A DNA stretch of 31,328 bases from an uncultured virus (IMG/VR IMGVR_UViG_3300020458_000003) (Duplodnaviria; Heunggongvirae; Uroviricota; Caudoviricetes), in IMG/VR virus record IMGVR_UViG_3300020458_000003; one strand, 5' to 3'. Shown here piece after piece: positions 1-26,815 of this stretch (its first letter is position 1; each line of letters opens with the position of its first letter). The notes under the pieces were generated by a model. It was not told the origin of the DNA. It worked only from the letters and a program-made list of their open reading frames with translations, and searched no databases. The position numbers and the translations under genes were made by a program.

Positions 1-420
1 TGGGTGGCTTCGTCGGAGCTCATTCCGTCATACGCGCCCTTGCGAGGGCTATTCGGAAGATTGGCAATGCAGTGTCCATTAACCTCAGTCGACTCCAGCA
101 TCTCCTGAATTGTCTTCTGGAGCTCTTGGAGGCTGTCCTGGACGTTTAGAACGTTCGAGGCATAAACGACGCAGTATTTTTCATTGAGTGCGTTAGAGTC
201 GTGTACGGGGCTTTTGTTCTCGCCGTATTCGTAGGGCGTGACGTCCACACCGTGACCAGAGAGAATTCCAGCATGAACGGCGTGTTTGCCAGCACCGAAA
301 TCTAGGACGGTGGCGTCCTGTCCCACCTGCTGGGCTACCTTCTCAGCAATCTTAGGGACCTTAGCATTGGGGCCAACGGCACCACCGGACCGAGAAGTGG
401 AGTTTGCAACAGCCACTGCC
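1..420 (-). other. Class I SAM-dependent methyltransferase domain (partial) within protein C
   Basis: Translation ATVLDFGAGKH...VDVTPYE...KYCVVYASNVLNVQ: motif I (D-F-G-A-G) and an SNVLNV post-II motif. Confidence 0.8.
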
Positions 421-6400: not shown

Positions 6401-6953
6401 GGACAACCGGGTGGTGACCGATGATAGAGGAGGCTTCAGGCTCTAATCGGTCGAATTCCACCCGGCCGTCGTCCCGAACGGTGATTTGGTGCTGATCTTC
6501 CAGGTACTCGGCGAGAGATTCATTGTCATCCGGGAGGTCTTCGGCTTGCAGCCATTCCTCAAAACCAGTGACACGGGATCGCATCTCAGAAAGAACAGAC
6601 TCGGCCTCGCCTGACGGCCCCTGGTGGACTCGTGGAGTACGTTTCTCTTCGATGGACCCAGAATCAATGTCCATCCACTTCTGGCCAGGAGGAATCCGCT
6701 CGTAATCAGCAGGGACCTCAGGCGTGTAAACACGACCATGGGAGTCATGGTCGACATACTGGCCGATATCGTCCTGGCCGGTGGGGATTATCCCCTTGTC
6801 TCCGATAGCTGTGAATCGGTCGCCATCGCCACGAGGATGTTGGGACTCGTCGAATCCCTCAGCGTATTGAACCTTGTCCGGATACTTGAATTCTCTCGGA
6901 CCGGTATTGCGAGGAGTGTGAGCTTTGAAGGTAGATAGCACAATATCCCCCAT
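1..6953 (-). CDS. Giant polyvalent-type multi-enzyme protein C (>2317 aa, truncated by the window edge): ART-like x3, GNAT, kinase-like, MutS-I-like and SAM-methyltransferase domains
   Basis: Manual translation from ATG 6953 (AAGGAGGT Shine-Dalgarno at 6961-6968) gives MGDIVLSTFKAHTPRN... and stays open to base 1. It is absent from the ORF track because no stop falls inside the window. Several recognisable enzyme motifs lie in this frame. Confidence 0.92.
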   Translation of the reverse strand, partial: MGDIVLSTFKAHTPRNTGPREFKYPDKVQYAEGFDESQHPRGDGDRFTAIGDKGIIPTGQDDIGQYVDHDSHGRVYTPEVPADYERIPPGQKWMDIDSGSIEEKRTPRVHQGPSGEAESVLSEMRSRVTGFEEWLQAEDLPDDNESLAEYLEDQHQITVRDDGRVEFDRLEPEASSIIGHHPVVLNHHTSDSLEDSIREQGLLRRGHDGVPSTNPHLNTGAGVYLTTESSGPVVSGYHDLATQSHGGNPRTFEVETYLDELDPDPDDVDLSVGGRQFVTSSVDPDKILNTMRRKEGRPVLYDEEFEDKHPREDDGKFGSGEELGQEEPKKSYGYLRYQPTGSDLFGWTSEGSEETNKPGHVFAYSSPEELLLGLHEWGLPNFSVDVVEFEGSGEYDPGDYEGVAVKPTSETRRTSLFDWLQLHGEQNPEDREDYGIDGLIENWEMRGMHSRRKEGRPVLYDEEFEDKHPRGDGGQFSSIGELESHLRDEHSDNLDLLYLNEGENHVRLDNVRMKEGQRGHGTGSKIIRALQEYAASKNKPVVLTAHPEPRKKKALESFYRSHGFRPPGRSRDFRLPRHTHVWNPTDGVTEKYGDDDIPLRYDQEFEEKHLRSEDGKFSEVVTETDHDNAGVMISQGLDPGFKPQIGDVQEFAPGLGLERNATYVSHPKSNKGSFGGVRIHMKVPDEQLDVPHELKQLGWSKHDPVSGLTHALETEHGGVVRGNLPPENISHVEVYDHGEGKWKAHSPVEYLEAHHGVSHAPKLPSIDEYRDVIKANQENLFLSDYKVDQAVHDYNRANLQDKIYMADALQEIQQSGKAGEPLRYDEQGMQPGETKTENGVVYVLNQNHRWTRQDGGDEPFALTQAPAVTPKKASFENQGGDQAALFQTSGLAGQMDLFKQAGTPDDLVQKGAGGEVIGTEESRPEPEVDKTDALRKSVQNNTHGYQDVVSGKFPVGVGSQRDGERASQDGLQSVTVGSHTVYGTNASDVARIAGLLADGRYGTTEFSRALGYTDDEIETYKDFLASTDQKHLINDADHYTPGQKIHFQNNAIINFPGPEHDGVDMVFLGEDEGISHFVHGSSTGPDKPDENVPGKPETWGYTIKMPKESVSGFVNDLQGRIQIKPNKNPFVDAVRQGKGELLGKGQEAVAWKVGDKVVKKGTTIPYTGLRADRYVHRTPEEAMQSIEDDYTNSRQLLKMGVPGIQEHQVAIGRGDGGAADQAFSVTDHLDIDARMNEQQLDQIRDSVRAMHKNGWALNDQIQVGIGRDGNAYHFDIGHASREHGPYAVEDDLSSLKALYEEHKQELIPWGAMAEDDFQGFIGMVNDWGANVRSDRMLKHEAKSSNSGRKGIIADDPSRAKQLNEQFSDALTKAGIDPSEFLDEHEIPKAGPKVQKTLFGKKFRLSKIRYRGQDSQQGPTWTSLGGARVLASQDGTILKGCPGLKGFDLDTLDETSDERADVQEEAEDSGWESEETKDARETHKEAQEQVGKDFVVLTRLGDKVYVFGGGAKILNDLTQVGDGESADFDTEDLDHHMSRLVDAGHRVAIVDRTEEGDPDLDSELDPEAEEIYEESREDADDEPEGPWEGSEGGIVDDEPEEIEPDDVFGELTPESAAVPDPTPEFPQDGGEESFGTQESRPEDPAVEPEVKTPQEVVGQLADILKSDLPEEMHDKVDQAAQAASGSDNPFSLYESFRPSREARHQMVAILAEHESASRTRDLPDAKGDSSGVGSEPVRPPDSEVPKPQPSPSRQRAMDRQREIEEAKRQEDAAGAEPGEELRGSDVGSDVELDEPAPQSNDEKYAIIGGHIEQAPTSIQGLLGSLHRLRDTKRRGHVQTTRLGHEYARELYDHLKDSTEASEYGQLHDLSKTLGHGAIGFSSDGGNVVMIPPKFKSDDWDVRYSIPREDVSPAESPQQTPPSVTGTEETGSSDEFSNVTENPKTPPKVRRVNPKSRIGKAILEALGPQSAETSDEEYAELQQQLKSVAEDIYSQKQEQAAGRAAGINDVIGQYFGNETVVEKDPVTGKTTRQASPRQRFLASLRQYRGRDHDAFQKHSPYGGQFDEMAETAERYHPDVLDWDVGESAGQGDSSEALWNTLQKSMMKNIQPWHDEVMAEALEQLSRHEEQPGSEARALIDSWSQAGQRSMRRGWKIRYKKWSRQSLARWRRYRAASHEDTAVAVANSTSRSGGAVGPNAKVPKIAEKVAQQVGQDATVLDFGAGKHAVHAGILSGHGVDVTPYEYGENKSPVHDSNALNEKYCVVYASNVLNVQDSLQELQKTIQEMLESTEVNGHCIANLPNSPRKGAYDGMSSDEAT
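2300..2530 (-). other. MutS domain-I-like module (degenerate) within protein C
   Basis: HKEAQEQVGKDFVVLTRLGDKVYVFGGGAKIL...LDHHMSRLVDAGHRVAIVD follows the MutS_I pattern (R-x-G-D...L-x-x-L-V-x-x-G-x-x-V-A-I) but lacks the F-x-E mismatch-binding residues. Confidence 0.6.
3110..3545 (-). other. Protein-kinase-like domain within protein C
   Basis: LLGKGQEAVAWKVGDKVVKK (Gly-loop plus VAIK-like Lys), AMHKNGWALNDQ (catalytic-loop-like) and YHFDIG (DFG-like). Confidence 0.7.
4720..5100 (-). other. Degenerate Tpt1/PARP-like ADP-ribosyltransferase-fold module within protein C
   Basis: TETDHDNAGVMISQGLDP...ATYVS...FGGVRIHMKVP...VVRGNLPPENISHVE parallels the layout of the module at 6090-6410, but the first-strand His is replaced by Thr. 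Confidence 0.45.
5210..5520 (-). other. GNAT acetyltransferase domain within protein C
   Basis: VRLDNVRMKEGQRGHGTGSKIIRALQEYA (acetyl-CoA motif A, Q/R-x-x-G-x-G) followed by VVLTA...ALESFYRSHGF (motif B). Confidence 0.88.
5551..5603. repeat. 53-bp direct repeat, copy 1 (encodes linker RRKEGRPVLYDEEFEDKH on the minus strand)
   Basis: Matches 6028-6080 at 52 of 53 positions. Confidence 0.95.
6028..6080. repeat. 53-bp direct repeat, copy 2
   Basis: tgcttgtcctcgaactc(c/t)tcgtcatacagaaccgggcgcccttcttttcgccg; one synonymous difference from 5551-5603. Confidence 0.95.
6090..6410 (-). other. H-Y-type (Tpt1/KptA/PARP-like) ADP-ribosyltransferase domain within protein C
   Basis: VVLNHHTSDSLEDSIREQGLLRRG...GAGVYLTTE...VDPDKI matches the H-x-T...SI...GL...G-x-G-V-Y-L-T signature. 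Confidence 0.72.
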
Positions 6954-8984: not shown

Positions 8985-9792
8985 GTGTGCTATTCGTGAT
9001 TAGGTATTCTAGAACATCGACGTTCCCTTGATTGCGCCCGTTGAGGTCTGTCCACTCCCATGAAGTCTTGGGGTACAACTCTCTGACCAGCGGGTGATCC
9101 TGAAACCGACACACGACCTTCGTTTTCGTGTACCCCGACAAAACCTCAGCCAGATGTCTGTGTCCGTCGTCGGTCATATGGTGCAGGTACTTGTCACCGC
9201 TGATTGGAAATGGAGGATCTGCATATATTCCGTGCCCGTCTCGGTCTTTGCATTTTTCAAGAAATTCAAAGACGTCAAGGCACGAGAACGTTACCCGGCT
9301 GAATTCTTCTCGCCACTGCTCCAACGACTCGATGGCCGAATGATATCGCTTAGCTGAATCGCCCCCGCCAGCTTCCCATCGCAGTGCTAATTGGTTTTTA
9401 AATTCACTCGTCGTTCCGCTTGTGGAGCTACGCCCCTGCCAGCAGCAAACGAAATAAGCCTCGGCCCAGTCAAGAGGATGACACAGCTCTCCGGATTCTT
9501 TGGCGAGACACAGTAGCTGACAGCGGCGCAACACCGCAGGGTGAAACAACAGGTTTGAAAGACGTTTCCTGAGTTTTGGACCGTGGATCCCGCTGGTCAC
9601 AACATCCGCAAGATTGATAACGTGATGATGCAGGTCGTTGGCCAGGATTGTCCTGGCCTTCATGTGGGGGATTTCTGACATCCCTCCAGCAAACGGTATC
9701 CCAACCCAGACACAGTCTTGCAAACACTCGCCCGCATGCTTTGCTAGCATTCGATTCGACCCAAACCATGGCGCGAGAGCGGTAATTTTCAT
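8962..9792 (-). CDS. Dam-like (D12-class) DNA adenine methyltransferase
   Basis: PWFGS, PFAGG, ANDL and a DPPF catalytic motif (DPPY variant). Confidence 0.85.
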   Translation of the reverse strand: MKITALAPWFGSNRMLAKHAGECLQDCVWVGIPFAGGMSEIPHMKARTILANDLHHHVINLADVVTSGIHGPKLRKRLSNLLFHPAVLRRCQLLCLAKESGELCHPLDWAEAYFVCCWQGRSSTSGTTSEFKNQLALRWEAGGGDSAKRYHSAIESLEQWREEFSRVTFSCLDVFEFLEKCKDRDGHGIYADPPFPISGDKYLHHMTDDGHRHLAEVLSGYTKTKVVCRFQDHPLVRELYPKTSWEWTDLNGRNQGNVDVLEYLITNSTRVFKTNE

Positions 9793-10019
9793 TTAACATC
9801 ACGCAACAATAATTTGATGTCGCTGCATGAGACACCCACCCCCGTGAATAAGAACTGACCGCATTGCTCGGTTAGTGAATGGGGCAGCCTCTGTAATGTC
9901 CTCTTGCCAACCAGATCTGCTGTCTGGGATTGATCTAGGTAGTCCCAGGCATCTCGTATCCCACCGGCCACAACAATCACCGCCCAACACGGTTCGGATA
10001 TTTCCCTATGTGTGCACAT
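9789..10019 (-). CDS. Hypothetical protein
   Basis: Overlap-coupled ORF in the minus-strand operon. Confidence 0.5.
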   Translation of the reverse strand: MCTHREISEPCWAVIVVAGGIRDAWDYLDQSQTADLVGKRTLQRLPHSLTEQCGQFLFTGVGVSCSDIKLLLRDVK

Positions 10020-13185: not shown

Positions 13186-16100
13186 CTATCTGCGTCGCCT
13201 GTTTTTAGCCCACCTATATGCTAGCCAAAATCCTATCACCGCTCCAGCCACATGTGCCAGGGTAATATTCCCTGGCTTTTGAAAAATCATCCTGAGGGCG
13301 TCCATGATGGCTGTGTTGCCCCCGGACTGTCCGTCCTCCTCTTGGCTTTGAAGGAACCGAAAAGCTCCCTCTATGTCGTCCTGGCGGTCCTCACCCACTG
13401 GTTCATAGCCTTTCCGTGCGGCCGTTTCAATCAAATACCCGGCGGCATTGTTGGCTGTCGCGGCCAATTCCTTTCCAGTCCCGCCTCTCCACCCGTACCC
13501 CTTCGCCATTTCCTTGACACTCTCAAGGTGCTCGGCTTGACCCTTCAGGAACTTAGCAGCGGCAACAGCCTTGTCGGTTGGGTCGCCCCCAGCTGAATCA
13601 GGGTCGAATCCCTGATGCCGCGCGACTCTTGTGAAAAACTGACGAAGTCGCTTGTCATTACGAACGTCACCGGCCGGGATGCCAAACATTGTGGCTACAC
13701 GCCCAACCTCCTCTTTTTCTTCAGGGAGGAAGTTTCTCGCTTGGTGCTTAGGGTTCAACTCGGGCGATCGTGGGTCTTTCGGTTCAACTGGCCCGCGACT
13801 ACCGACTAACTTATCACTACCGTTGGCGAGACCCATACCGCCCCATCGCTGTCCCTCTGCGTCCTGCATCATCCCGCGGCTAATCGCCACAATGGGTACC
13901 ACTTTGTTACCATCGGCCGTTACAAGAGAAATCGAATTGTTGGCCTCTAAATGTTTTTGTACGAACCCAGCAACGTCGTCAGAGAATTTACCAACGTCCA
14001 GGTGTCCTGACTCGTTGGTGTGCTTCTGAACAAACCAGTCAAGCTTGAGTTCCTTGCCGACAGACTTTTTACGGCCCGCTGGCTTCGGAGCTTTCTCCGG
14101 TTTGAAGTGCGCCGACACCGCTTCTTTGTTGAATTTCAACATCTGGTCATCGGTGATAAACGTGTCGCCGTTGCTCCATCCCGACATGTTCATTTCTGGG
14201 ATGTCTGTTTTTGTCCACCCGTCGATTTCAGTTCCCGCCTTCGCGCCCTCAAGCTGGGTGAGTGGAGATTGTTTTTTTCCTGTTGGTGTCGTCTCCTTGG
14301 CTTTGCCTCGCTCTCCAGGGGGATTGTTCCCGTAGAACTTTTCGCCTGTTTCAACGTTCTCCCACCCATGGCCGCCACGGGGTCCGGTGTACGGCATCCA
14401 TTTAGCGTATCGAATTGGATTGCCGTCTTTGTCCAACTCCGGTCGGTTTGTTTGAACCGAGAGAACGGTCTGGTTGTTGGCAAAGGCATGAATTTTCTTC
14501 AGCGTTTCCCTTTTTGTTTTGCCCTTAGGCAAACCCAAGTCATCAGCTAGTTCATGAAGCTCCGAAAGCGGTATTCTCTTAGCAGCATGTTCGGCAGCTT
14601 GCTTGAATTGCTCGGCGTTTTCATCACTGATTCCGGATTTCAGAAACTCTCGCATCTTCAGGACATGGGGCTGCTCTTGTCGCCACTTTTTCCACGCGCC
14701 AGTGACTAGAATTAGAGGCTCGTCGTCTCCTCCGACTCCGATTTGCCTTCCGGCTCCGTGCCAGATGTCCCTTTCCACGTCCCCAGCAAACGATGCGGGC
14801 GTCGGTGTGACGTATACACTCACACCTCCCTCATGCCTGCCCTCCATCGTATTAAAGGATCTGCCGGAATCTGGCGGAGTGCCGACTCGGTAATATGTCC
14901 TGGGTGGCGCAACAGGATCACTGAGGTGATCAACAAAGGGATCTTCGAGAAGTTCGTTAGCGAGTGATTCGCTCTCTACTTTGATCGTCTCGTGTGTCCC
15001 GTCTACAAAAAAGACCACTCGCTCGTGTGGTGCGTCTTCTACTGAGCTACGAAAATCATCGTACCCGGTAGCGTCTTGCATGTACCCGTAGGTGACAGGC
15101 ATTGATGCCTCTTCGGGAGACATGGATTCTGGATCCGATCCTACCCCGAGAAGCGACTCCCGAAACTCATCTTCCGCTTTCTCTGTGGCTTTAATGGCCG
15201 CGGCCACTTTCGCGTTGTCAGGACCAGCTAACCCAGGTATTGGAGTCTCTAATATGCGAAGTCTCTCTAGGTCGAAATCTGTTATACTGTGCGTCTCACG
15301 GAGATCGTTGAGCGCAGACTTGGATTCGCGAAGTGTATGTCGTTTTCGTGGAGCATCTCCCGACGCGACTTGCGTTTCGTCTCCAACCTTCGGTTCCGGT
15401 TCTGGAACAACTTCTTCCTTGGGCTTAGCAACCGCTGGCTGCTCTGTCGAAACGTCTGGCTCAGACTCCGTCCCATCCGTCGATCCCTCTAGCTGGCCAG
15501 ATAGCGACGGCTTGCTCTTGCCTGCCGAGGGTGAGTCCTTGGATGGCTCCCTCTCGCCAGGTGGATCTGTTCCGTAGACCTTCTCACCAGTCTCCACGTT
15601 CTCCCATCCATGCCCTCCACGGGGCCCGGTGTACGGCATCCACTTAGCGTACCGGATTGGATTGCCGTCTTTGTCCAACTCCGGTCGGTTTGTTTTTCGC
15701 CATCCTTCGACTTGAACCGAGAGAACGGACTGGTTGTTGACGAAATCATTGATTGCTTTGAGAGTTGCTTTTTTCGTTCTTCCCTTGGGTAGCCCCAGGT
15801 CGTCGGCCAGTTCATGCAACTCCGCAATCGGCAGTCGCTTTGCAGCATGCTCGGCAGATCTCTTGAATTGACCTAGGTTTTCCTCTGTGATTCCAGATTG
15901 CATCATCTGGCGCATGTCCACCCCGGCATCCTGCCCAGACTCCAATCGCTTCAAATCGCGAGTTTCGCCCCACTCGTGAGCCGCCTTGTGAATCAAATCC
16001 TGGATAACTTCAGCCGGGAACATCTCTGAAAACCATCGGTCAGCAACTTCACTCGGATCTTCATCGTGAAGCCATGCGTGCTCGTCCGCATAAGCATAGA

Positions 16101-17220
16101 GTCGATCATGAAGGGCATTTCCGTTTCGAAACCATTCCCACGGTTCTAAGTGGTCAGAGATAAAATCTAGATGCAAAGTAGAATACGGGTTGTTTTTTGA
16201 ACCTCCCGAAATGGACTTGTCGTTCTCTATGATCTCCTTAAAGAACTCGGGGTCTTTAAACACCTGCAACTTGGGTCGGCCCTTTTTTAGCAACGGGTTT
16301 GAGCCGTATTTTGCTTGAGCCTTTTCCTTGAAGATCTTTGCTTCGTCCACGTACATCTGCTGAACTTCAAGCGGAGACACAAGACGGTCGTACCAGGCAA
16401 GAGCGGCGTCTTCCCAAAGCTCATCCCCGACATACCCGTCTTCTGACTGCAGATCCTCGGCAATCCTTTGGACCTTGTCAAAAATCTTGGTACCTCCACG
16501 AATCATGTCGGGATCAACTTCACGAAGGAAGTCCTCACCCACTCCCTCCTTAGCGATTTCCTCGACCGACTCATAAAAAAAGTCATTTTTCTTGAGAGCA
16601 AGCGATTGCGGTTTCAACGCCATGACATTCGGCGGTGGAGGTGGCGCATCGACACCCGAGCTTGGGAATTCGTCATTCCATAGGTTCAGGCATCCAGTGT
16701 AGAGTGGCCCCCAGCTCGTGTCCGTGCTTTGTCTTGGCGATCTCTCCGGAGAAGAAACGTCCGGTGACTCTTGCGGCTGTGCTGGCGACGGCTGAGAAAT
16801 CACGTCAGGGACCTGTTTGGCATCACCTGGACCACTTCCAAACTTACCTTCGTCGTCGCGAGGATGCTTTTCTTCGTCCCAGAGACTTAGCTGTCGAGAG
16901 TAACTTAGGGAATCGTCGTACCCCCGAGTAGACGCTTCCTTGAGTCGTCCTAGCGTGCCGTCGTGTCGCAGTGACTTGTAGACGAGATTCTCAAGAGAGA
17001 ATTCTCCACCGCCAGTGATGCCAATCTGACGAAACGACCAAAGCCGATTGAGAAGCTGTTCTAGTCGCTCCGGATAATCAATCTCGATCGCGGTATCGAC
17101 CGTCGCACGAATGCGATCTGCCTTCCTTTGGACGCATTCATCGTCAACATCGAGCGGATCACCCGGGCGGTCTACCCACTCATCTTGAAAAATCGAATAC
17201 CGTCCTTGACTGGCGATCAT
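13186..17220 (-). CDS. Giant polyvalent-type protein B (about 1344 aa): C-half of a nucleotidyltransferase, internal duplication, ART-like module, C-terminal TM anchor
   Basis: ATG 17220 has an AGGAGG RBS and is preferred over TTG 17256. N-terminus SQGRYSIFQDEW...GEFSLENLVYKSLR; HPRDDEGKF linker; hydrophobic C-terminus followed by KNRRRR. Confidence 0.88.
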   Translation of the reverse strand: MIASQGRYSIFQDEWVDRPGDPLDVDDECVQRKADRIRATVDTAIEIDYPERLEQLLNRLWSFRQIGITGGGEFSLENLVYKSLRHDGTLGRLKEASTRGYDDSLSYSRQLSLWDEEKHPRDDEGKFGSGPGDAKQVPDVISQPSPAQPQESPDVSSPERSPRQSTDTSWGPLYTGCLNLWNDEFPSSGVDAPPPPPNVMALKPQSLALKKNDFFYESVEEIAKEGVGEDFLREVDPDMIRGGTKIFDKVQRIAEDLQSEDGYVGDELWEDAALAWYDRLVSPLEVQQMYVDEAKIFKEKAQAKYGSNPLLKKGRPKLQVFKDPEFFKEIIENDKSISGGSKNNPYSTLHLDFISDHLEPWEWFRNGNALHDRLYAYADEHAWLHDEDPSEVADRWFSEMFPAEVIQDLIHKAAHEWGETRDLKRLESGQDAGVDMRQMMQSGITEENLGQFKRSAEHAAKRLPIAELHELADDLGLPKGRTKKATLKAINDFVNNQSVLSVQVEGWRKTNRPELDKDGNPIRYAKWMPYTGPRGGHGWENVETGEKVYGTDPPGEREPSKDSPSAGKSKPSLSGQLEGSTDGTESEPDVSTEQPAVAKPKEEVVPEPEPKVGDETQVASGDAPRKRHTLRESKSALNDLRETHSITDFDLERLRILETPIPGLAGPDNAKVAAAIKATEKAEDEFRESLLGVGSDPESMSPEEASMPVTYGYMQDATGYDDFRSSVEDAPHERVVFFVDGTHETIKVESESLANELLEDPFVDHLSDPVAPPRTYYRVGTPPDSGRSFNTMEGRHEGGVSVYVTPTPASFAGDVERDIWHGAGRQIGVGGDDEPLILVTGAWKKWRQEQPHVLKMREFLKSGISDENAEQFKQAAEHAAKRIPLSELHELADDLGLPKGKTKRETLKKIHAFANNQTVLSVQTNRPELDKDGNPIRYAKWMPYTGPRGGHGWENVETGEKFYGNNPPGERGKAKETTPTGKKQSPLTQLEGAKAGTEIDGWTKTDIPEMNMSGWSNGDTFITDDQMLKFNKEAVSAHFKPEKAPKPAGRKKSVGKELKLDWFVQKHTNESGHLDVGKFSDDVAGFVQKHLEANNSISLVTADGNKVVPIVAISRGMMQDAEGQRWGGMGLANGSDKLVGSRGPVEPKDPRSPELNPKHQARNFLPEEKEEVGRVATMFGIPAGDVRNDKRLRQFFTRVARHQGFDPDSAGGDPTDKAVAAAKFLKGQAEHLESVKEMAKGYGWRGGTGKELAATANNAAGYLIETAARKGYEPVGEDRQDDIEGAFRFLQSQEEDGQSGGNTAIMDALRMIFQKPGNITLAHVAGAVIGFWLAYRWAKNRRRR
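14308..14637. repeat. Intragenic duplication in protein B, copy 2 (about 110 aa)
   Basis: SGISDENAEQFKQAAEHAAKR...NRPELDKDGNPIRYAKWMPYTGPRGGHGWENVETGEK..PPGER, near-identical in protein to 15550-15897. Confidence 0.92.
15550..15897. repeat. Intragenic duplication in protein B, copy 1
   Basis: SGITEENLGQFKRSAEHAAKR...NRPELDKDGNPIRYAKWMPYTGPRGGHGWENVETGEK..PPGER; has 6 extra residues (VEGWRK) relative to copy 2. Confidence 0.92.
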
Positions 17221-17221
17221 C

Positions 17222-17413
17222 TCATTCCTCCTGAGCGAGGTCGATGCGGACACCAATAACAGAGATCATCTCGCTAATCTTTCCGCACGGAAGTTGGTCA
17301 GCGAGAGTTGCCAGGACGATTTCCATGTTTTCACATTCGACAGGATTTGTTTTATTTGGGACTTCTGCTGTTGCTGTCGGGCCTTGAAGTGTAAACAAGA
17401 TGTTCCATTTCAT
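17222..17413 (-). CDS. 63-aa hypothetical ORF inserted between the two halves of the nucleotidyltransferase
   Basis: ATGA overlap with the stop of protein A; its TGA lies 1 nt before the ATG of protein B and its 3' end supplies the AGGAGG RBS. Confidence 0.5.
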   Translation of the reverse strand: MKWNILFTLQGPTATAEVPNKTNPVECENMEIVLATLADQLPCGKISEMISVIGVRIDLAQEE

Positions 17414-20400
17414 ACGATGACACTCGCCGAAACCGCCAACAGATCTCCGGCAGTTTCTTCCATCGGCTCTACGAACACCTCAACCTCGTGCCCTTTTATT
17501 GTGATCGAATGCTTGGCATTCCAGTTGGACGAAACGTTGTAGAAATAGTCCTGAACCATATCCGGCGGCGCGAGTAGTTGCTCTGGGTCTACGATGATGT
17601 GTAAATCCAGATCGCTCCTGTTGTCCCACGAGTAGCCCGCTAGAGACCCCGTCACCTGGACGTCTATGACAGCGTCTCGCGGTATTTCGGTCCCACCAAT
17701 GAAATCCCCAGCGATCTTGCGAAGTCTCTCCAGGATATGAAGGTCGAGCTCACCGTCTGCGAACAAAGGTGACAGCTTCTCGGTTGCGAGATTCGGGCCT
17801 CTGGAGTAGCGGCGTTTGCTAGGCTGGTCCCAACGGAATCCCTTGGCATTCTTGTCCACAAGACTTTGCCACCAGGAAATTTGCCATTCGCCTTGATACT
17901 TCGAGACGCTGACCCCCTGTTTCTTAAGAGCCGCCTTGTTCTTTCGCCACTCCTTCCAGAACTCCTGAGTTGGAATGGCGCTGCGGACAGTTCTCGCGCC
18001 CTGGCTAGTGGTAACATTTCTTGGGTCAGACCAATTTAACATCCCCTGCAAACCACTCGCTCTCTTGGAGGGCGCTGGGGCCTTTTCTGACTCCGACTCT
18101 TTCGTGGCTGCAGCCACTACCTCCGCGTCTAATTGTCTACGGTATTTATGGACCAGCTTCATCGCAGCGCCGGCCTGGCGATCTGTCAGGGTGTCCTGGC
18201 TCGCAAGTTCGTGACCGTACCGTCCATCAAACCTATTGAAACCAATGTCGTTTCTGGTCAAGGCGAGGTCGGGGTCCATCGCAGCAATAGACCGCAGTCC
18301 TTCGAGTATCGCTTGTTTTTGCTCTTCAGGAACCTTAGGGGCTACTCGCTCAGGCGGAGGCAAGGGCAGCGGCTCCTGAGTGGCTGGAGGACTCCCGCCA
18401 ATGGTCGCCAGCGTAAATCCAAGTTTCCCCCCACTCGAATGGATGACTTCCCCTACCGTCTTTTGCTGGGTAGAGCCGTCGCGCTTTGTAATCTCGACTA
18501 CATCGCCAGGCTTAGCATGACCCTTAATCCGCACACCCCATTCGCCGCTAGGTAAGCTTGCAAAGCTGGCAGTAGGCTTACTACGGCCCTCGCCCGGGTA
18601 CTTCCACTCGTAAGGCTCCTCGGGAGTAAACTCTAGGGCGTCGGCTCCTGTCAGACTATTTACGTCTAAGGCTGACACCTGGCCTTGAACGCTGGCGCCA
18701 AGCGTCTTCATTTTCTCACTGATTAACGAGGCGTTCCAGTCGTCGACCTCGGTATCAGCGAATAGGAATTTTATTTCCGGAATGGATTGTGTTCTAAGCC
18801 GCCAAACGCGCCCGGCCGCTTGGACGTTTTGCACAGCCGAGAACGGCGCGGTCATCATGACAAGCGTTCGCGGGGCGTCACCAGTCGTGTCGTCTAAATT
18901 GATCCCCGTTCCGCCACTCTCAACCGTGGCAATCACAACTTTGGCGGCGCCAGACTGGAAACGGTCCATTTCCTTGGGCAGCTTACTTGGCTTCAGTCCG
19001 CCGTGTATCTGGGCAACGTCGGCGGCTGAGATGCCTCGCTTCTCCAGTTCTTCCAGAAGAAGTTTCATTGTACCTGCGGATGTGACGGCGAACTCTCCCT
19101 CCTCGTCGGCCTCGCCAACGTTTGATTCGTTCACCCGGCTGGCGAAGATTACAGCCTGCCGTCCGTTCGCTATTGCATCGACGGCAATATCGACAGTCGC
19201 TTGAACCTTGTAGGGCTCTTGCTGTCGTCGCTGGTGCATCAGAATGCGGGCTTCTTCTAATCCTGGATTATTAGAACTTCCCTCAATCATGGTCCGAATG
19301 GTATCCATCATTTCGTGAACTTCTGATGGAACCTTGACCTGCTCAATGCTAACCGGCACGCCAGTCATGTCCAGCTCGCGCTTGAGCATTTTGCCATCAG
19401 CTGTCAAACGGTCGAACAAACCGGATATTCGGCGCATGACTTCCGTTCCTTTGATGCCTGGCTTAATTTCCCACTTCATCACAGTGCCAGTACGAGTTCG
19501 CTGAGATATTTGATGAAGCCCCAGCTGCTCATATGTCTTGCCGAAATACTCATCCCCAAACACGCCAGCACGATCCAGATAGGACAGATGCTCCCACTTA
19601 TCTATTGGAGTAGCCGTGGCGAACAGCACAGCGTGAGAGTTTTCGGTGATTGCTTTGCCGTGACTAGCTTGTGCGGATGTGCGGTTTTTAAGGGCGTGCG
19701 CCTCGTCGAAGATCACGACAGTATCGCCGTCTACCAGATTTTTGATCTTGCTGAGGTTCTGGTAGCTGCTGATATTGACGACCCCTGGCGTGACCTCGTC
19801 TCTGGTTACGTTCAGCTCTACCCCCATGGCTTCGCTGTCGTCCTGCCAAGACCCGGCTACGGTCCTCTTCTTCCAGTCGGCCTTGGTAACGTTTTTCGGC
19901 GCAATGACGATGACCTTTTTGCCCTCGTCAAGAAAATGCTGCGCGACTGCGAGCATTTGTCGAGTTTTGCCGACACCGGTGCCATCACAGGTCAGGAACC
20001 CGCCGTTGGCCTCCATTGAAGAAATGGCGGCGCTCACCCCCTCCAGCTGATGGTCGCCTAGATGTTGTTGTAGGCGTTCTGGAACTCGGGATCGATCTGC
20101 CGCAGGCGTGTGTTGTTCTCTCGCGAGGATGATCCGCTCATCTTGCGATCTTCCGCGATTAGCTCCGCTATCGCTTGGGCTGCCAGAGTCTCCGTCGTCA
20201 GATAATCCTCGAACGGGATGTCCTCCACCAGATCCTCCAGATTCGCCTTCGATTGGTCCTTCGATTGGTCCTTCGACATTTTCGGTCTCCTGTAGGTCTT
20301 CAGTTTTCCCGGAATCCTCATCAACTAGCTCTAGCTTTTTCTGTTCCTTGGGGCTCGCTTCCACCGCGGCATCCGTAGAAATCCAACTGCCTCCATGCTG

Positions 20401-22638
20401 TTCCGTACCGGTCTCCGGGTTCGAGAACGTTTCTCCGGACTTTACGCGAGGGTGAGAATCCTCGTCCCATAATGTCATCTGCTTGGCGTACTTGCTGACC
20501 TGGGTGTTGATTGGTTTCTTCGTCGTCCCGATCGACAGCCAGCACTTGAACTGATCCAATGTCATAGCCGTAACGGGTCCAACCGTCCACCCGGACGAAT
20601 ACGACGACTTGTACAGGTCTGTCGCCTCTTTAACCGACGTGCAGCCGATCACCACCTTATGCTCATCGAACCGCCCACCCTGGGTCACTTGGTCAATGGC
20701 GACCACTAGCTCACTTTCTGGGTTAGGACCGATGAACACATCGAGATGGTCCCCGTCCCGTTCACTCTTTGTCAGCTTGACGTATCCATAGTGGGCGATC
20801 AGGGCGGGCCATGAAGGTCCTCGTTTGGTGCCTTTTGGGGTTTCAATAGCGACTTCCAGGCCATTCCACCAAAAAACACCTTTGCGGTAATTCCCGGCTT
20901 CCTTTTGGGATTCACTCGCCGCCGTATCGGTCCAGTCTGCCGCATCTTTGATAGCCTGGCGAAGTTCAGACGACTTCGAATACATGATCGGTCCGAAGAT
21001 ACGTCTTTTCTCACGATCCTCATCGGCATCCTTGTCCATCTGATCAGGCATTCCATCCATGGCGGACATCTGGTCTTCCGTGCCGTCGCCGACCACTCCG
21101 TCGCCATCTCCATCCTGGGGAATCTCCTGAGGCATGTCTGGCATGCCGCCTGGAGAACCCTGCTCCTGATTCTCCATCTGCTCAATCTGAGCTACAAGCG
21201 GAGGATTGAACAGCTTGAAATCATCCTTGTCCGGCATGGACAGGTCCAAACGATCAAAGATGTCGGAAGCTTTGATTTTTGCGCCCATTTGCCACAACTG
21301 CATCAGGGCCGACAGCTCTTCTTGTGGCGCGGAACTCTTGGTAGATATCCGGAACCACATATCAACGTTGCGGTACTTCGGAAAATTGACGTCTCTTAGG
21401 AAATGCAGGCATTCCTTTGTGATCGTCTCCTCTAGCTTTACCGCGTCGTACCGGACAATATGGTTAAGCGTGTCTTTTTGGAGTTCGGCAACCCCTGAAT
21501 TCATCCCGGTAGAACTGGACTTACTGGACAGCGTCTGCCCCAGAATGAACCGCGTTATCATGTCCCCGAAAAAGTCCTCGACAACACTCCTGAGGACCTC
21601 AAGGCCCTGGGTGTTGGGTGGGATCTGCTCGACCCTATACTGGTCGTTTTCTTCGGATGGCATCAGGATCACGTTCGTGTGAGCCTGCTCCTTGGATATC
21701 TTCTCGACCTCGGCTCTCGCCGTTTCATTTCCGCTCGGGTAGAAGTAGATCGTGAACCCCATGCCCGTTCGGTCAATCAATTCGGCAATCTGGGCCAAGG
21801 TCTCCTGTTTTTGATACCACACCCAATACAAGAAGTGCCTCATCCCGACGCCATGAATTTGACCACCCGAAATCGGATCCTCAAACTCACCGTCACGGAT
21901 CATGTGGCGATGTATACACCACATATTCCGTTCCCACGGCTGCAGGAAATACCCAAGACCTTCGCCAGTGGCTTCCAGCTCTCGGTGTCCTGCGATGTAG
22001 TCGTTTTTGCTTAGCGCCGCCGAAACTCGCACTCCAATCTGATCCGGGTCATAGCTCCCAGTACCGTCGTCGTACCGAAACAACAGCTTGTCACCTGAAA
22101 CAGGAATCCACTTCCGGATGACTCGCCGACGAACACCATGACGGTTGATGTGGGTGCCATAAGCATGCTGAATTCCATATCTCCCGTACCAGATAGCTTC
22201 CATCAGGCAGCGGCGATATTCCGTAAAATTGGGAATCCTCCTTATAATGTCCGTCATCTCGGCGGCCAAGGCTTTTAACTTGGGATCTTTGTCGTCTTCG
22301 GTCTCAATAGACCAATTAAGCAGCGATGCCATTGTTTGACGAGAAAACAGCGGACCAGCAACGACTGGGTCGTTGAGCATCGCATGGGCATTTTCCTGGT
22401 TATGGCGCAAGGCTTCATCGCTGTCGCGATAGGCCCGCGACAAACTCGTAACCATCCCACGGAAAGTTACGACATGAGGTACAGCCGGGCGCCCCAGGTT
22501 CGGAACGGTCCCCGCTCCAGGATCATCTGCCCGAGAGGACCCCTGAAGCAGCTTGCGGTATCGATCTGGCAAGCTTATCCCTGACGGATAATCCTGCCCA
22601 CCAATGCGAATCCCTCCCTTTGGTGCTCTAATCACCAC
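17410..22638 (-). CDS. Portal-fused polyvalent protein A (1742 aa): DUF935/Mu-gp29-like portal, InPase-like domain, Strawberry-notch-like SF2 helicase, N-half of a nucleotidyltransferase
   Basis: Portal about 22475-21200 (LNDP...LNWSIE, EAIWYG, ILGQTLSS, DAVKLEETI). InPase-like about 20935-20530 (AGNYRKG, IETPKG, HYGY, DGDHLDVFIG, FDEHKV). Helicase about 20060-18680 (DGTGVGKTRQ, DEAH, ATATP, GGTGINL, QAAGRVWR). NTase about 17780-17455 (TGS...SDLDLH). GTG start with a GGAGGGG RBS. Confidence 0.9.
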   Translation of the reverse strand: MVIRAPKGGIRIGGQDYPSGISLPDRYRKLLQGSSRADDPGAGTVPNLGRPAVPHVVTFRGMVTSLSRAYRDSDEALRHNQENAHAMLNDPVVAGPLFSRQTMASLLNWSIETEDDKDPKLKALAAEMTDIIRRIPNFTEYRRCLMEAIWYGRYGIQHAYGTHINRHGVRRRVIRKWIPVSGDKLLFRYDDGTGSYDPDQIGVRVSAALSKNDYIAGHRELEATGEGLGYFLQPWERNMWCIHRHMIRDGEFEDPISGGQIHGVGMRHFLYWVWYQKQETLAQIAELIDRTGMGFTIYFYPSGNETARAEVEKISKEQAHTNVILMPSEENDQYRVEQIPPNTQGLEVLRSVVEDFFGDMITRFILGQTLSSKSSSTGMNSGVAELQKDTLNHIVRYDAVKLEETITKECLHFLRDVNFPKYRNVDMWFRISTKSSAPQEELSALMQLWQMGAKIKASDIFDRLDLSMPDKDDFKLFNPPLVAQIEQMENQEQGSPGGMPDMPQEIPQDGDGDGVVGDGTEDQMSAMDGMPDQMDKDADEDREKRRIFGPIMYSKSSELRQAIKDAADWTDTAASESQKEAGNYRKGVFWWNGLEVAIETPKGTKRGPSWPALIAHYGYVKLTKSERDGDHLDVFIGPNPESELVVAIDQVTQGGRFDEHKVVIGCTSVKEATDLYKSSYSSGWTVGPVTAMTLDQFKCWLSIGTTKKPINTQVSKYAKQMTLWDEDSHPRVKSGETFSNPETGTEQHGGSWISTDAAVEASPKEQKKLELVDEDSGKTEDLQETENVEGPIEGPIEGESGGSGGGHPVRGLSDDGDSGSPSDSGANRGRSQDERIILAREQHTPAADRSRVPERLQQHLGDHQLEGVSAAISSMEANGGFLTCDGTGVGKTRQMLAVAQHFLDEGKKVIVIAPKNVTKADWKKRTVAGSWQDDSEAMGVELNVTRDEVTPGVVNISSYQNLSKIKNLVDGDTVVIFDEAHALKNRTSAQASHGKAITENSHAVLFATATPIDKWEHLSYLDRAGVFGDEYFGKTYEQLGLHQISQRTRTGTVMKWEIKPGIKGTEVMRRISGLFDRLTADGKMLKRELDMTGVPVSIEQVKVPSEVHEMMDTIRTMIEGSSNNPGLEEARILMHQRRQQEPYKVQATVDIAVDAIANGRQAVIFASRVNESNVGEADEEGEFAVTSAGTMKLLLEELEKRGISAADVAQIHGGLKPSKLPKEMDRFQSGAAKVVIATVESGGTGINLDDTTGDAPRTLVMMTAPFSAVQNVQAAGRVWRLRTQSIPEIKFLFADTEVDDWNASLISEKMKTLGASVQGQVSALDVNSLTGADALEFTPEEPYEWKYPGEGRSKPTASFASLPSGEWGVRIKGHAKPGDVVEITKRDGSTQQKTVGEVIHSSGGKLGFTLATIGGSPPATQEPLPLPPPERVAPKVPEEQKQAILEGLRSIAAMDPDLALTRNDIGFNRFDGRYGHELASQDTLTDRQAGAAMKLVHKYRRQLDAEVVAAATKESESEKAPAPSKRASGLQGMLNWSDPRNVTTSQGARTVRSAIPTQEFWKEWRKNKAALKKQGVSVSKYQGEWQISWWQSLVDKNAKGFRWDQPSKRRYSRGPNLATEKLSPLFADGELDLHILERLRKIAGDFIGGTEIPRDAVIDVQVTGSLAGYSWDNRSDLDLHIIVDPEQLLAPPDMVQDYFYNVSSNWNAKHSITIKGHEVEVFVEPMEETAGDLLAVSASVIV

Positions 22639-24850: not shown

Positions 24851-26815
24851 CTATCGCCCATGAATTCTTTTGTGTCGGACCTGAGGGCGTTGTTTTTGCT
24901 CGGTCCGGTAAGATGCGGCGCCGCCCGTAGTCGACCTGGCATCTGTGTGGATCAGGTACCGAAGGGCATCCATGCAGTCGTCGTACTTTTTTAGTGGCTG
25001 TGGCTTGGCGGCCTTTGGATTCAATCCACGACCGGATGATTTCTCCCATCGATAGGTGAAAAACTCCTTGATCGTTTGCTTACACCAGCTCGCCACGCGA
25101 ATCTGTGGACCGATCAAGGGATGGACCTTTAAGCACTTCCGAACAGATTCGATCCCTTCGTAGACCCTATTGTTCGCTGTCGTGACCGGAATGCCGTTGC
25201 TGTTGAACTCACGAAACAGATCCGGCCTGGACGGGTCTCCGTAGCTCTGACGAAAACACGGGTGACCTACGATCCAAGGATACATTGCACATATCGCCTC
25301 ACAGTGATCCTTCCATAGCTTGCCTTGGTCTGTGCTGTGGTATTCTCCGTAAATATTCCAGATCCCAAGAGAGTCCTTGTATCCAAAAACTACAGCCAGT
25401 GGGTGGTCCTCGCTCGCACCCCAGTCAATACCTCTCTTGTGAATCACTTCCGCCCGTGGAATTGGCATGTCGTCCACTACATGTATCGCGCGGTTGAATG
25501 TCTGGTAGATCAGACCCTCGTAGGAAGCGAACGCGCCTGTTTTTCTCGTCTCCGTCATCTCCTGGCTGACGGAAGCAAAAAATTCATCAGACCAAGCCCG
25601 GCCAACTACACTATTCGGGTCGGCTACATTGGACTCCGTGTTGCAACGGTAGAATTTCCAGGTGGGGGGAACCTTGTCCTCGACAACCATTTCCTCAATC
25701 CAGTAGGTGAGGGTTGGATCGACAGGAGTCAGCTCGAAGAACTTCGATCCAGGGTAGTTGTACTCTCGGGTCGCCCTCATGATCTCCGTCAACAGCTCTC
25801 TAGGGAACGGTTCCGTGCAACAGAAGCCACCGATAGACTCGGCCGTCATAACAGCGGCGCCTTCAGCGAAAGACCGGAATTCAATACACCAGTTGCTCCT
25901 CTGATTTTCGCCTCGGCCCCTCGGCCATGGTAGGAGTGGGACGGATATCGGAAGAGCCTGCTTCTCTGAATGCCAGCGGATTCTCCGCCAATCCACTTCC
26001 GTCTGCGGGATGTGGCCGTGACCGTAGAGCTTTTCTTTCCAGAACGTTTTGATTGTCTGGTCGATTCTGGGGCCAACCACCCAAAACGGAGTATCGGGGC
26101 GAGGCGCCTCTTGGCGGTTCAGGACGAACTGCGCCAGCTTGTAGGCCGCAGCTTCACTGGTGCCAGAGTTATGATGGAAGACGCCAGCGCATAGATAGTT
26201 GTTGTTTCCAGGTACGTGAACGTCGTAGAAGTCATCTGTACGCACGTACTCAATGGAGTCAATATGGGTGGCAATCGACGCCCGTTCCCTACTTTTGAAT
26301 GCCTTTCCCTTGTCCTCTGGAGGAAATGCAGCGATGGCAAACAGGCAATCACCGGCGCGAAGCTCGCGAATTTGTCGCCATTCTTCATCCAGACAAAGTA
26401 CCCGGTGATGTAAAGTCGAAACAAAAGACTCGCCTGTCGAAAGACGAATGCGAAACAGCGGGGCAACGCCTTTCACAAACGGACGGGCACTCCGAGACCG
26501 TTCTAGATAGCGGTCACCCAGGCTCGAAACCCAGAAGGAAGAAGTGATTCTGTCGATGCGTCTCGACTGTCCAGAAACAGGATCAAACAGCTCCTGCTCT
26601 CCACCTAGACACGCATTTCCACCTAGAAGCCCAGCCACGCCAGGAACTTGATCTTCAACAAATGACTGCTGTTGGTCGTAGTTCTCTGGGTCGTCTGGTC
26701 GCGGACGAAATGTGCAGTAGAAGTTATTTTCTAACTCAGCTAGTAAATCCCTGGCTTCGGGGCAGTCAGCTAGCACCCTCGCCATTTCCGCCAGATCGAC
26801 CATTTCCGTTGCCAT
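24851..26815 (-). CDS. Terminase large subunit containing a mini-intein
   Basis: GGN-type P-loop region; C-terminal RNase-H-like nuclease motifs GIDWG, YGDPS and DDCMDALRY; lies between terS and the portal. Confidence 0.9.
   Translation of the reverse strand: MATEMVDLAEMARVLADCPEARDLLAELENNFYCTFRPRPDDPENYDQQQSFVEDQVPGVAGLLGGNACLGGEQELFDPVSGQSRRIDRITSSFWVSSLGDRYLERSRSARPFVKGVAPLFRIRLSTGESFVSTLHHRVLCLDEEWRQIRELRAGDCLFAIAAFPPEDKGKAFKSRERASIATHIDSIEYVRTDDFYDVHVPGNNNYLCAGVFHHNSGTSEAAAYKLAQFVLNRQEAPRPDTPFWVVGPRIDQTIKTFWKEKLYGHGHIPQTEVDWRRIRWHSEKQALPISVPLLPWPRGRGENQRSNWCIEFRSFAEGAAVMTAESIGGFCCTEPFPRELLTEIMRATREYNYPGSKFFELTPVDPTLTYWIEEMVVEDKVPPTWKFYRCNTESNVADPNSVVGRAWSDEFFASVSQEMTETRKTGAFASYEGLIYQTFNRAIHVVDDMPIPRAEVIHKRGIDWGASEDHPLAVVFGYKDSLGIWNIYGEYHSTDQGKLWKDHCEAICAMYPWIVGHPCFRQSYGDPSRPDLFREFNSNGIPVTTANNRVYEGIESVRKCLKVHPLIGPQIRVASWCKQTIKEFFTYRWEKSSGRGLNPKAAKPQPLKKYDDCMDALRYLIHTDARSTTGGAASYRTEQKQRPQVRHKRIHGR
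26168..26611 (-). mobile_element. Mini-intein (148 aa, no homing endonuclease) in the terminase Walker A region
   Basis: Starts CLGGEQEL; block B TLHHRV; block F FYDVHVPGNNNY; ends HN followed by extein Ser. Confidence 0.92.

Follow-up and report, generated by a model that had tools for sequence, protein, structure and literature searches.

A Pol-beta-type nucleotidyltransferase cut in two between a portal fusion and its neighbouring gene in an uncultured tailed phage

Introduction

What becomes of an enzyme whose gene has been broken in two, with each part left on a different large protein? The question is raised by a 31,328-nucleotide (nt) stretch of DNA, hereafter the window, which makes up most of the 35,362-base record of an uncultured Caudoviricetes virus (IMG/VR IMGVR_UViG_3300020458_000003); the virus occurs in marine metagenomes. 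On the minus strand of the window a terminase gene with an intein is followed by the gene of a portal fusion (protein A), an open reading frame (ORF) of 63 amino acids (aa), and the gene of a second large protein (B). A first-pass annotation, made from the sequence alone, proposed that a nucleotidyltransferase is divided between the end of A and the start of B by an in-frame insert of about 234 nt, and offered three accounts: a split enzyme that reassembles and thereby tethers B to the portal, an insert that is spliced out or bypassed by ribosomes to give a portal fusion of about 3070 aa, or a small gene that has inactivated the domain. We find that a single enzyme is indeed divided between the two genes, and sequence comparison leads us to favor, at a probability of roughly 65%, the first account, a genes-in-pieces enzyme in which two separately translated chains re-form the nucleotidyltransferase non-covalently.

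Results

A and B carry collinear parts of one enzyme

The genes of A and B share one reading frame, interrupted by TGA stops at 17412-17410 and 17268-17266, as the first-pass annotation had noted. The PHROG 36119 profile matches A 1631-1729 over profile positions 36-136 (E 1.7e-17) and B 4-106 over profile positions 140-246 (E 5.7e-10), and it matches the A/B read-through at E 2e-32; since A and B match adjoining segments of the profile, they hold collinear parts of one family, as had been proposed, rather than pieces of two. The enzyme is a Pol-beta-type nucleotidyltransferase of PHROG 36119 cut in two, its catalytic (N) half ending A and its helical (C) half starting B. The Pol-beta hallmarks (G-S, D-x-D, and a third acidic residue on the core sheet) are complete in the window, as they are in each split N half among its relatives, and PF01909 matches 65 of 85 intact family members at E <=0.01.

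Searching 1.84 billion representatives by phmmer, with the read-through as query and X at the stops, returned 3069 proteins at E <=0.001; homologue counts refer to the best 150 of these unless stated otherwise. Both halves lie in a single chain in 141 of the 150, and nine have one half only, two of them being A and B themselves and seven being relatives. Excising exactly 78 codons from the read-through gives the spacing found in 115 of the 141 intact homologues (+1 in 13, +7 in 10, shorter in three), in agreement with the excision of about 78 codons first suggested. The length of the insert is firm, while its ends may slide by several codons (a MAFFT alignment places the gap five residues later). 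Intein families from Pfam were not matched in A, B, or the small ORF by a scan that did detect the terminase intein. A first viral scan with the read-through gave no matches, and a scan of prokaryote genomes gave two weak, unrelated-looking loci.

The break recurs at the same place

The seven relatives with one half, at 55-74% identity, comprise three N halves (P0004, P0011, and P0023) and four C halves (P0009, P0020, P0068, and P0119). All seven are broken at the same place, the C halves starting at B's start +/-1 residue, and pairwise identity among split halves is 52-74%. A wider check of 267 sequences found both halves in 255, the N half only in five, and the C half only in five. The carriers vary: the N half of P0004 ends a portal fusion of 1343 aa with a tail of 10 residues, P0011 is a protein of 102 aa with a 9-residue tail from a contig of 824 bases, P0020 comes from a contig of 1080 bases, and in P0023 the N half occupies 907-1011 of a 1983-aa portal fusion, with a helicase following it and about 970 residues after the half in all.

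P0004 and P0068 belong to one DNA locus, L001, in which A is followed by an ATGA-coupled 59-aa homologue of the small gene, by ORFs of 51 and 78 aa, and then by B; the spacer measures 589 nt, so the two halves are out of frame there. P0023 and P0009 probably come from one genome, each being recorded on one contig with a longest length of 52,161. Among 206 sequences (205 partly redundant loci and the genome), 157 have the intact enzyme, nine have the split (from two distinct phages), and two have a single half at a contig end. In a metagenome scan, the split loci among the best 80 of at least 600 stretches were those of the window phage and the L001 phage only.

Both halves are conserved, and the break falls in a loop

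Every split N half retains G-S, D-x-D-x-H, and the third acidic E, and every split C half retains W, P, K, R, N, K, R, and D at family-conserved positions. In the N half, 18 of 22 family-conserved columns are invariant in the split rows, compared with 22 of 74 other columns (four rows, P0152 being left out as a duplicate of P0004), and in the C half the corresponding counts are 17 of 18 and 26 of 91 (five rows); the comparison ignores kinship between rows, which makes its significance optimistic. Between the window and L001, synonymous divergence (pS) is saturated at 0.77-0.85 across regions (0.77 in the N half and 0.82 in the C half), and non-synonymous divergence (pN) is 0.16 in the N half and 0.27 in the C half, with 0.09 in the portal, 0.17 in the inorganic pyrophosphatase (InPase) domain, and 0.27 in the last domain of B. 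These comparisons indicate that both halves are under purifying selection, and that the split is old and common to a phage group.

In the structural model of an intact member, P0050 (predicted local distance difference test, pLDDT, 93.4), a minimal Pol-beta core extends to the strand at 111-119 and is followed by a loop, a beta-hairpin at 129-139, and four helices; the break maps to the loop, 120-128. The best matches of this model in the PDB are CD-NTases and aminoglycoside adenylyltransferases (template modelling score, TM, <=0.3), which together with MNT proteins are distant fold neighbours. The substrate is left unfixed by a wide fold search, which gave no match at Z >=8, and by a PDB sequence search with an intact member, which gave weak matches only (DrrA N-terminal domain, E 0.024). 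A model of the read-through places both halves (pLDDT of the blocks 81-98, predicted TM score 0.66, insert poorly predicted) and resembles intact viral models at TM up to 0.69 (about 0.73 possible).

A proposed course from polyprotein domain to two-chain enzyme

The conserved split point and the purifying selection on both halves give indirect support to reassembly, so that of the first account in the first-pass annotation the divided enzyme is observed and its reassembly is inferred. We suggest the following course. In an ancestor, the enzyme would have been one domain inside a portal polyprotein, and a break in the surface loop between the catalytic core and the hairpin-plus-helix domain, probably due to insertion of the small gene, which brought a stop, a start, and a ribosome-binding site, would have produced two genes. 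A, the small protein, and B may now be translated successively from one late transcript as three chains, after which the A half, with its metal-binding D, D, and E, would dock non-covalently with the B half and restore the active site, where the conserved K and R residues of the B half presumably hold the nucleotide. Fusion to the portal suggests that the enzyme is packaged with it and injected; it may be used early in infection, and the InPase on A would remove pyrophosphate, in line with the assisting role proposed for InPase (PMC5512222). The reaction could be nucleotide transfer to a host protein, a tentative choice to which we give somewhat less than even odds, with a nucleotide signal or an RNA end as alternatives.

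Docking of halves that remain attached to their carriers would also hold B on the portal fusion. A bolder and rather unlikely version is an assembly-gated virion effector, in which the enzyme would stay off until B has docked on the portal fusion, the interface would recruit B together with variable cargo (398-1344 aa, with a membrane-like end), and the 63-aa protein would separate or join the halves. A short motif bears on the tether. Y-[AS]-[KRQ] recurs at module junctions in A, B, the giant gene of the window, L166 (a relative described below), P0023, and P0008 (a relative with the intact enzyme), and it flanks the enzyme: in the window and L001 it stands just ahead of the N half and just behind the C half, and in P0008 it borders the intact domain at either end. 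It was found 39 times in 15 related proteins where shuffling predicts 16.5, although these proteins are not independent and the motif was picked after inspection; none was found in P0013 (a second intact relative), terminase, or UvrD. The motif is a possible protease site or recombination linker, and cleavage at these sites, if it takes place, would set the two-chain enzyme free and weaken the idea of a tether.

Several observations weigh against reassembly, besides the kinship between rows mentioned above. At the DNA level the distinct split loci number two, the window and L001; the pairing of P0023 with P0009 rests on equal contig count and size, and P0011 and P0020 come from short contigs. 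The two halves disagree in their distances, in that P0023 is the more distant N half and P0009 the closest C half. Between populations, 10 of 11 substitutions in A and B (16300-18500) are non-synonymous, at a contig depth of 3-5; the three of these that fall within the halves (I to V, L to I, and G to E) affect no catalytic or split-invariant residue. The alignment behind the read-through model came from intact homologues, so the model speaks for compatibility with the intact fold only and is no independent evidence of binding. As for its distribution, the enzyme had no match in L166 and four other portal relatives (records 53-100% complete, with no positive control), which implies that it is dispensable in the wider group. 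In L166, whose portal is 67% identical, portal and helicase are fused and a B-type gene stands apart, with neither half of the enzyme, so B can exist without the enzyme piece; the presence of both carriers with neither half fits joint loss, a point for reassembly, and it also shows that the piece is not needed to keep B.

Alternative explanations

A further point against reassembly concerns the end of A. Three N halves carry a hydrophobic tail (L-x-[AV]-V-[SAT]) that aligns in register with the first strand of B, and this tail could fill the place of that strand and let the N half fold or work alone. The tail is the main reason to retain the possibility that the halves are independent, with the tail-capped N half (perhaps together with the 63-aa protein) acting as a minimal nucleotidyltransferase and the C half as a binding module on B. 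Consistent with such independence, the fold of the N half is like that of stand-alone minimal nucleotidyltransferases (2rff, Z 7.3, root-mean-square deviation 4.7, 105 residues aligned; 1no5, Z 6.3; both below Z 8), and both loci for which there is DNA show coupling of the small gene to A. In the read-through model the tail is helical and of low confidence. However, each C half keeps 16-17 of the 18 family-conserved columns, equal to or above the 14-16 kept by intact embedded relatives, P0023 has no such tail, and the halves co-occur or are jointly absent in the genomes seen. We regard independent halves as distinctly unlikely.

The 63-aa protein could itself be part of the enzyme, either as a chaperone needed for re-forming it or as an inhibitor until virion assembly or injection. 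The translational coupling to A reported in the first-pass annotation holds: the ATG of the small ORF, which lies in another frame, overlaps A's stop (ATGA), and its own stop lies one base before B's ATG. On comparative evidence the ORF is a real coding gene. Of its five variants, four are synonymous when read in its own frame and one changes I to L, while in the A/B frame all five would be non-synonymous (one contig, depth 3.4; three of the five also occur in run X9). The sole homologue found for its product, by a protein search with two candidates, is the 59-aa P0153 of L001, which likewise lies directly behind A, is 35% identical, and is equalled in score by none of 5000 shuffles. A three-part system would explain why the small gene keeps this position in both loci, between which its synonymous sites are saturated (pN 0.45, pS 0.72), and why it is found only at the split (two of two candidates, none of four related records without the split, and only at split loci among the 206 sequences), although the word-based search behind the absence is weak for 60-aa proteins. 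Against it, the L001 spacer holds two more small genes (9620-9998), and the 78-aa one is similar to a free-standing phage family (phrog_31227, E 1.4e-5); small genes may therefore just accumulate in the spacer. We consider such a three-part system very unlikely. For the 63-aa protein, a single-sequence search gave no relative, Atlas matches were all below 0.9 with a low-confidence model, and no Pfam or PHROG match or endonuclease signature was found. The insert also contains an imperfect 18-nt direct repeat (72%), which is not used as evidence here.

If insertion of the small gene caused the split, the halves could be decaying relics of a dead domain, as the third account in the first-pass annotation would have it. 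The mostly non-synonymous population variants in A and B would fit decay, as would the dispensability of the enzyme in the wider group. Decay is contradicted by the retention of catalytic residues in every split N half and of the K and R residues in every split C half, and by pN of only 0.16-0.27 at saturated synonymous sites; the branches of the split rows (0.14-0.52) are also shorter than those of most intact portal-fused relatives (0.9-1.3). Of that account, the small gene itself is borne out and may be the cause of the split; the inactivation is highly improbable.

Removal of the insert at the RNA level, by self-splicing or ribosomal bypass, would yield the portal fusion of about 3070 aa, and it draws on the shared frame, on the exact 78-codon spacing, and on an 11-bp stem over the left junction (17457-17429). 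In a group I intron the 5' splice site is marked by a U-G pair in P1, and the intron ends in G; the hairpin has a U-G pair where such a splice site would fall, a terminal G is present in the window, and bases after the hairpin can pair across the right junction. The hairpin is kept in the X9 variant contig through a 3-nt insertion and a substitution (-13.1 compared with -12.8 kcal/mol). It is one of seven stems of at least 11 bp on the window's minus strand, and shuffled versions of the complete insert fold as well as the insert does (z -0.22). Against RNA-level removal, L001 has a spacer that is out of frame and without the hairpin and terminal G, and the N half of P0023 lies mid-protein, neither of which bypass can explain; Rfam gave no intron match at E up to 10, and a simple pattern scan of the window insert found no R, S, or paired P7 pattern of a group I core. 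A ribosome-binding site of its own precedes B, and the insert changes in the manner of the 63-aa gene. In the bypass of T4 gene 60, matched take-off and landing codons are combined with a stop right after the take-off codon, within a hairpin. Here the first stop lies 14 codons beyond the junction rather than right after a take-off codon, and the arrangement is not kept in L001; a bypass of this type is not supported. An alternative code that reads TGA as sense was ruled out as well, TGA occurring 0 times and TGG 130 times in 7395 codons of four long ORFs. Joining at the RNA level is scarcely credible, and the shared frame of A and B in the window is a one-in-three coincidence; our guess is that the hairpin tunes translation of the small gene.

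Misassembly is negligible as an explanation: although the window is a metagenomic contig and the comparison was with assembled contigs rather than raw reads, the insert is bridged in three of the four runs compared, by one contig each (X6, 17129-18500; X7, 17168-17563, possibly not independent of X6; and X8, 17112-17500, which differs at five bases across the insert and so represents a separate population), no contig joint in the four runs skips it, and the same arrangement recurs in the diverged phage of L001.

Origin of the split

Trees of 58 rows each (110-113 columns, midpoint roots only) group the split N halves with six intact polyprotein-embedded copies (support 99/94) and unite the split C halves in one clade (97/87); a single clade for the split N halves is not rejected by the approximately unbiased test (p-AU 0.60). 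Nearest relatives include P0008, P0013, and P0077/L188, which combine a portal, the intact enzyme, and InPase, and this is likely to be the ancestral layout.

Other features of the locus

Coordinates are collected in Table 1. Several unrelated effector domains are fused to the portal in A (portal, InPase, helicase, and nucleotidyltransferase half), which places A among polyvalent proteins. Relatives of B measure 398-590 aa and have its last domain in common. This domain (13189-13743 in the window, 10844-11398 in L001, and 19969-20535 in L166) is 38-57% identical among five relatives, and the portal fusion of L169 contains a weaker copy; Atlas and PHROG gave nothing usable for the domain, and no family was found. 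B also contains two near-copies of a module of about 100 residues (about 15550-15870 and 14310-14630, minus strand), in which a weak Rho_N match precedes a Y-A-K-W motif, and a proline/serine-rich linker (16683-16729) with an in-frame length polymorphism, 21 nt being absent in run X6 and P0273 and 45 nt in run X9.

Elsewhere in the window, the terminase large subunit (24851-26815, minus strand) carries a short intein (PF14890, residues 118-216, E 5e-9), and a third giant gene (3-6953, minus strand, running on past the window, at least 3655 aa, open at the contig edge) matches GNAT and, weakly, MutS-I, and has a duplicated module close to its end. The portal-fusion helicase of L166 (9566-16021) is interrupted by an apparent full-length intein, recognised by eye, which the window's helicase does not have. 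Promoter and terminator patterns were not found in 16900-17900.

Table 1. Features of the split-enzyme locus, in window coordinates (E, expectation value; SF2, superfamily 2).
Feature	Position	Strand	Remarks
Protein A	17410..22638	-	1742 aa: portal + inorganic pyrophosphatase + SNF2/strawberry-notch-type helicase + catalytic nucleotidyltransferase half
Portal_Mu domain, A 84-465	21244..22389	-	PF06074, E 3.9e-34
InPase domain, A 577-701	20536..20910	-	PF18823, E 6e-35
SF2 helicase region, A 851-1324	18667..20088	-	PF13872, PF00176, PF13871, PF00271
Y-[AS]-[KRQ] module-boundary motif just upstream of N half (A 1611)	17800..17808	-	motif picked after inspection
Catalytic (N) half, A 1620-1728	17455..17781	-	G-S, D-x-D-x-H, third acidic E; minimal Pol-beta core
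A's 14-residue tail and TGA stop	17410..17454	-	hydrophobic; tail 10 aa in P0004, 9 aa in P0011
RNA hairpin, 11-bp stem, covering left junction	17429..17457	-	present in an X9 variant contig, not in L001
63-aa gene (P0001)	17222..17413	-	translationally coupled to A
Second in-frame TGA of A/B frame	17266..17268	-	within 63-aa gene
AGGAGG ribosome-binding site of B	17227..17232	-	6 nt upstream of ATG; within end of 63-aa gene
Helical (C) half, B 1-107	16900..17220	-	beta-hairpin + helical bundle; conserved W15, P19, K33, R64, N78, K82, R85, D102
Y-[AS]-[KRQ] module-boundary motif just downstream of C half (B 107)	16894..16902	-	motif picked after inspection
Protein B	13186..17220	-	1344 aa; ATG at 17220, stop at 13186
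B's conserved C-terminal domain, 185 aa	13189..13743	-	hydrophobic stretch, then arginine tail at end

Discussion

Genes in pieces are described in T4-like phages, where nrdA of Aeh1 is split by mobE, the T4 topoisomerase by mobA, and the polymerase of Aeromonas phages 25 and 44RR into gp43A and gp43B, and where the split Aeh1 NrdA and the split gp43 reassemble into active enzyme (PMC2988022). The arrangement described here is like the Aeh1 NrdA class in that a phage enzyme is broken by an intervening gene into two coding regions, separately initiated and both under purifying selection. It differs in three respects. First, the intervening gene encodes 63 aa and no homing endonuclease, so the split would work like the genes-in-pieces class without being a homing-endonuclease case. 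Second, the enzyme is a domain of a virion polyprotein with each half on a different large carrier, and its reassembly is a proposal. Third, in P0023, one of the relatives, the N half has shifted to another place in its carrier. Fractured genes with split inteins, in which a conserved phage enzyme from marine-type metagenomes is divided into two parts that flank a free-standing gene (PMC2677866), are also comparable, but here there are no intein fragments and no endonuclease, the first residues of B already belong to the enzyme, and A closes with a tail (9-14 residues among the tailed N halves). The split may likewise be compared with a split polymerase III module noted in PMC7824862.

The portal-fused, multidomain layout of A resembles the phage polyvalent proteins, portal fusions with InPase, helicase, GNAT, and MutS-I domains that are proposed to be packaged and injected, some of them after proteolytic processing (PMC5512222). 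The nucleotidyltransferase family here is phage-borne and longer (core plus helical domain) than what the text of that paper describes. The NTP_transf_2-like nucleotidyltransferases of PHROG 36119 from Lak, Synechococcus, and Maribacter phages belong to the same family and share its catalytic residues, and the known ones are single chains. In HI0073/HI0074 and in MNT-HEPN pairs, a minimal catalytic core works with a separate helical partner chain. The helical half here, in contrast, would be the enzyme's own former C-terminal domain, and B gave no HEPN match. A literature search found no paper describing this split, with subscription journals mostly outside its coverage and the supplements of PMC5512222 possibly listing such architectures, and no described substrate for the PHROG 36119 family.

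The naturally split phage enzymes known so far are mainly replication enzymes that a homing endonuclease or an intein has interrupted, and neither is present here. This split lies instead in virion polyproteins, and it has survived a shift of the catalytic half from the end of its carrier to the middle. For a widespread phage family (3069 representatives at E <=0.001), it offers a split point that is tolerated in nature, with two fragments of about 110 residues each, which make activity and reassembly easy to test. If docking of the halves does link their carriers, the locus would show how phages can retain portal cargo once a polyprotein gene has broken, and it would provide a small natural complementation pair.

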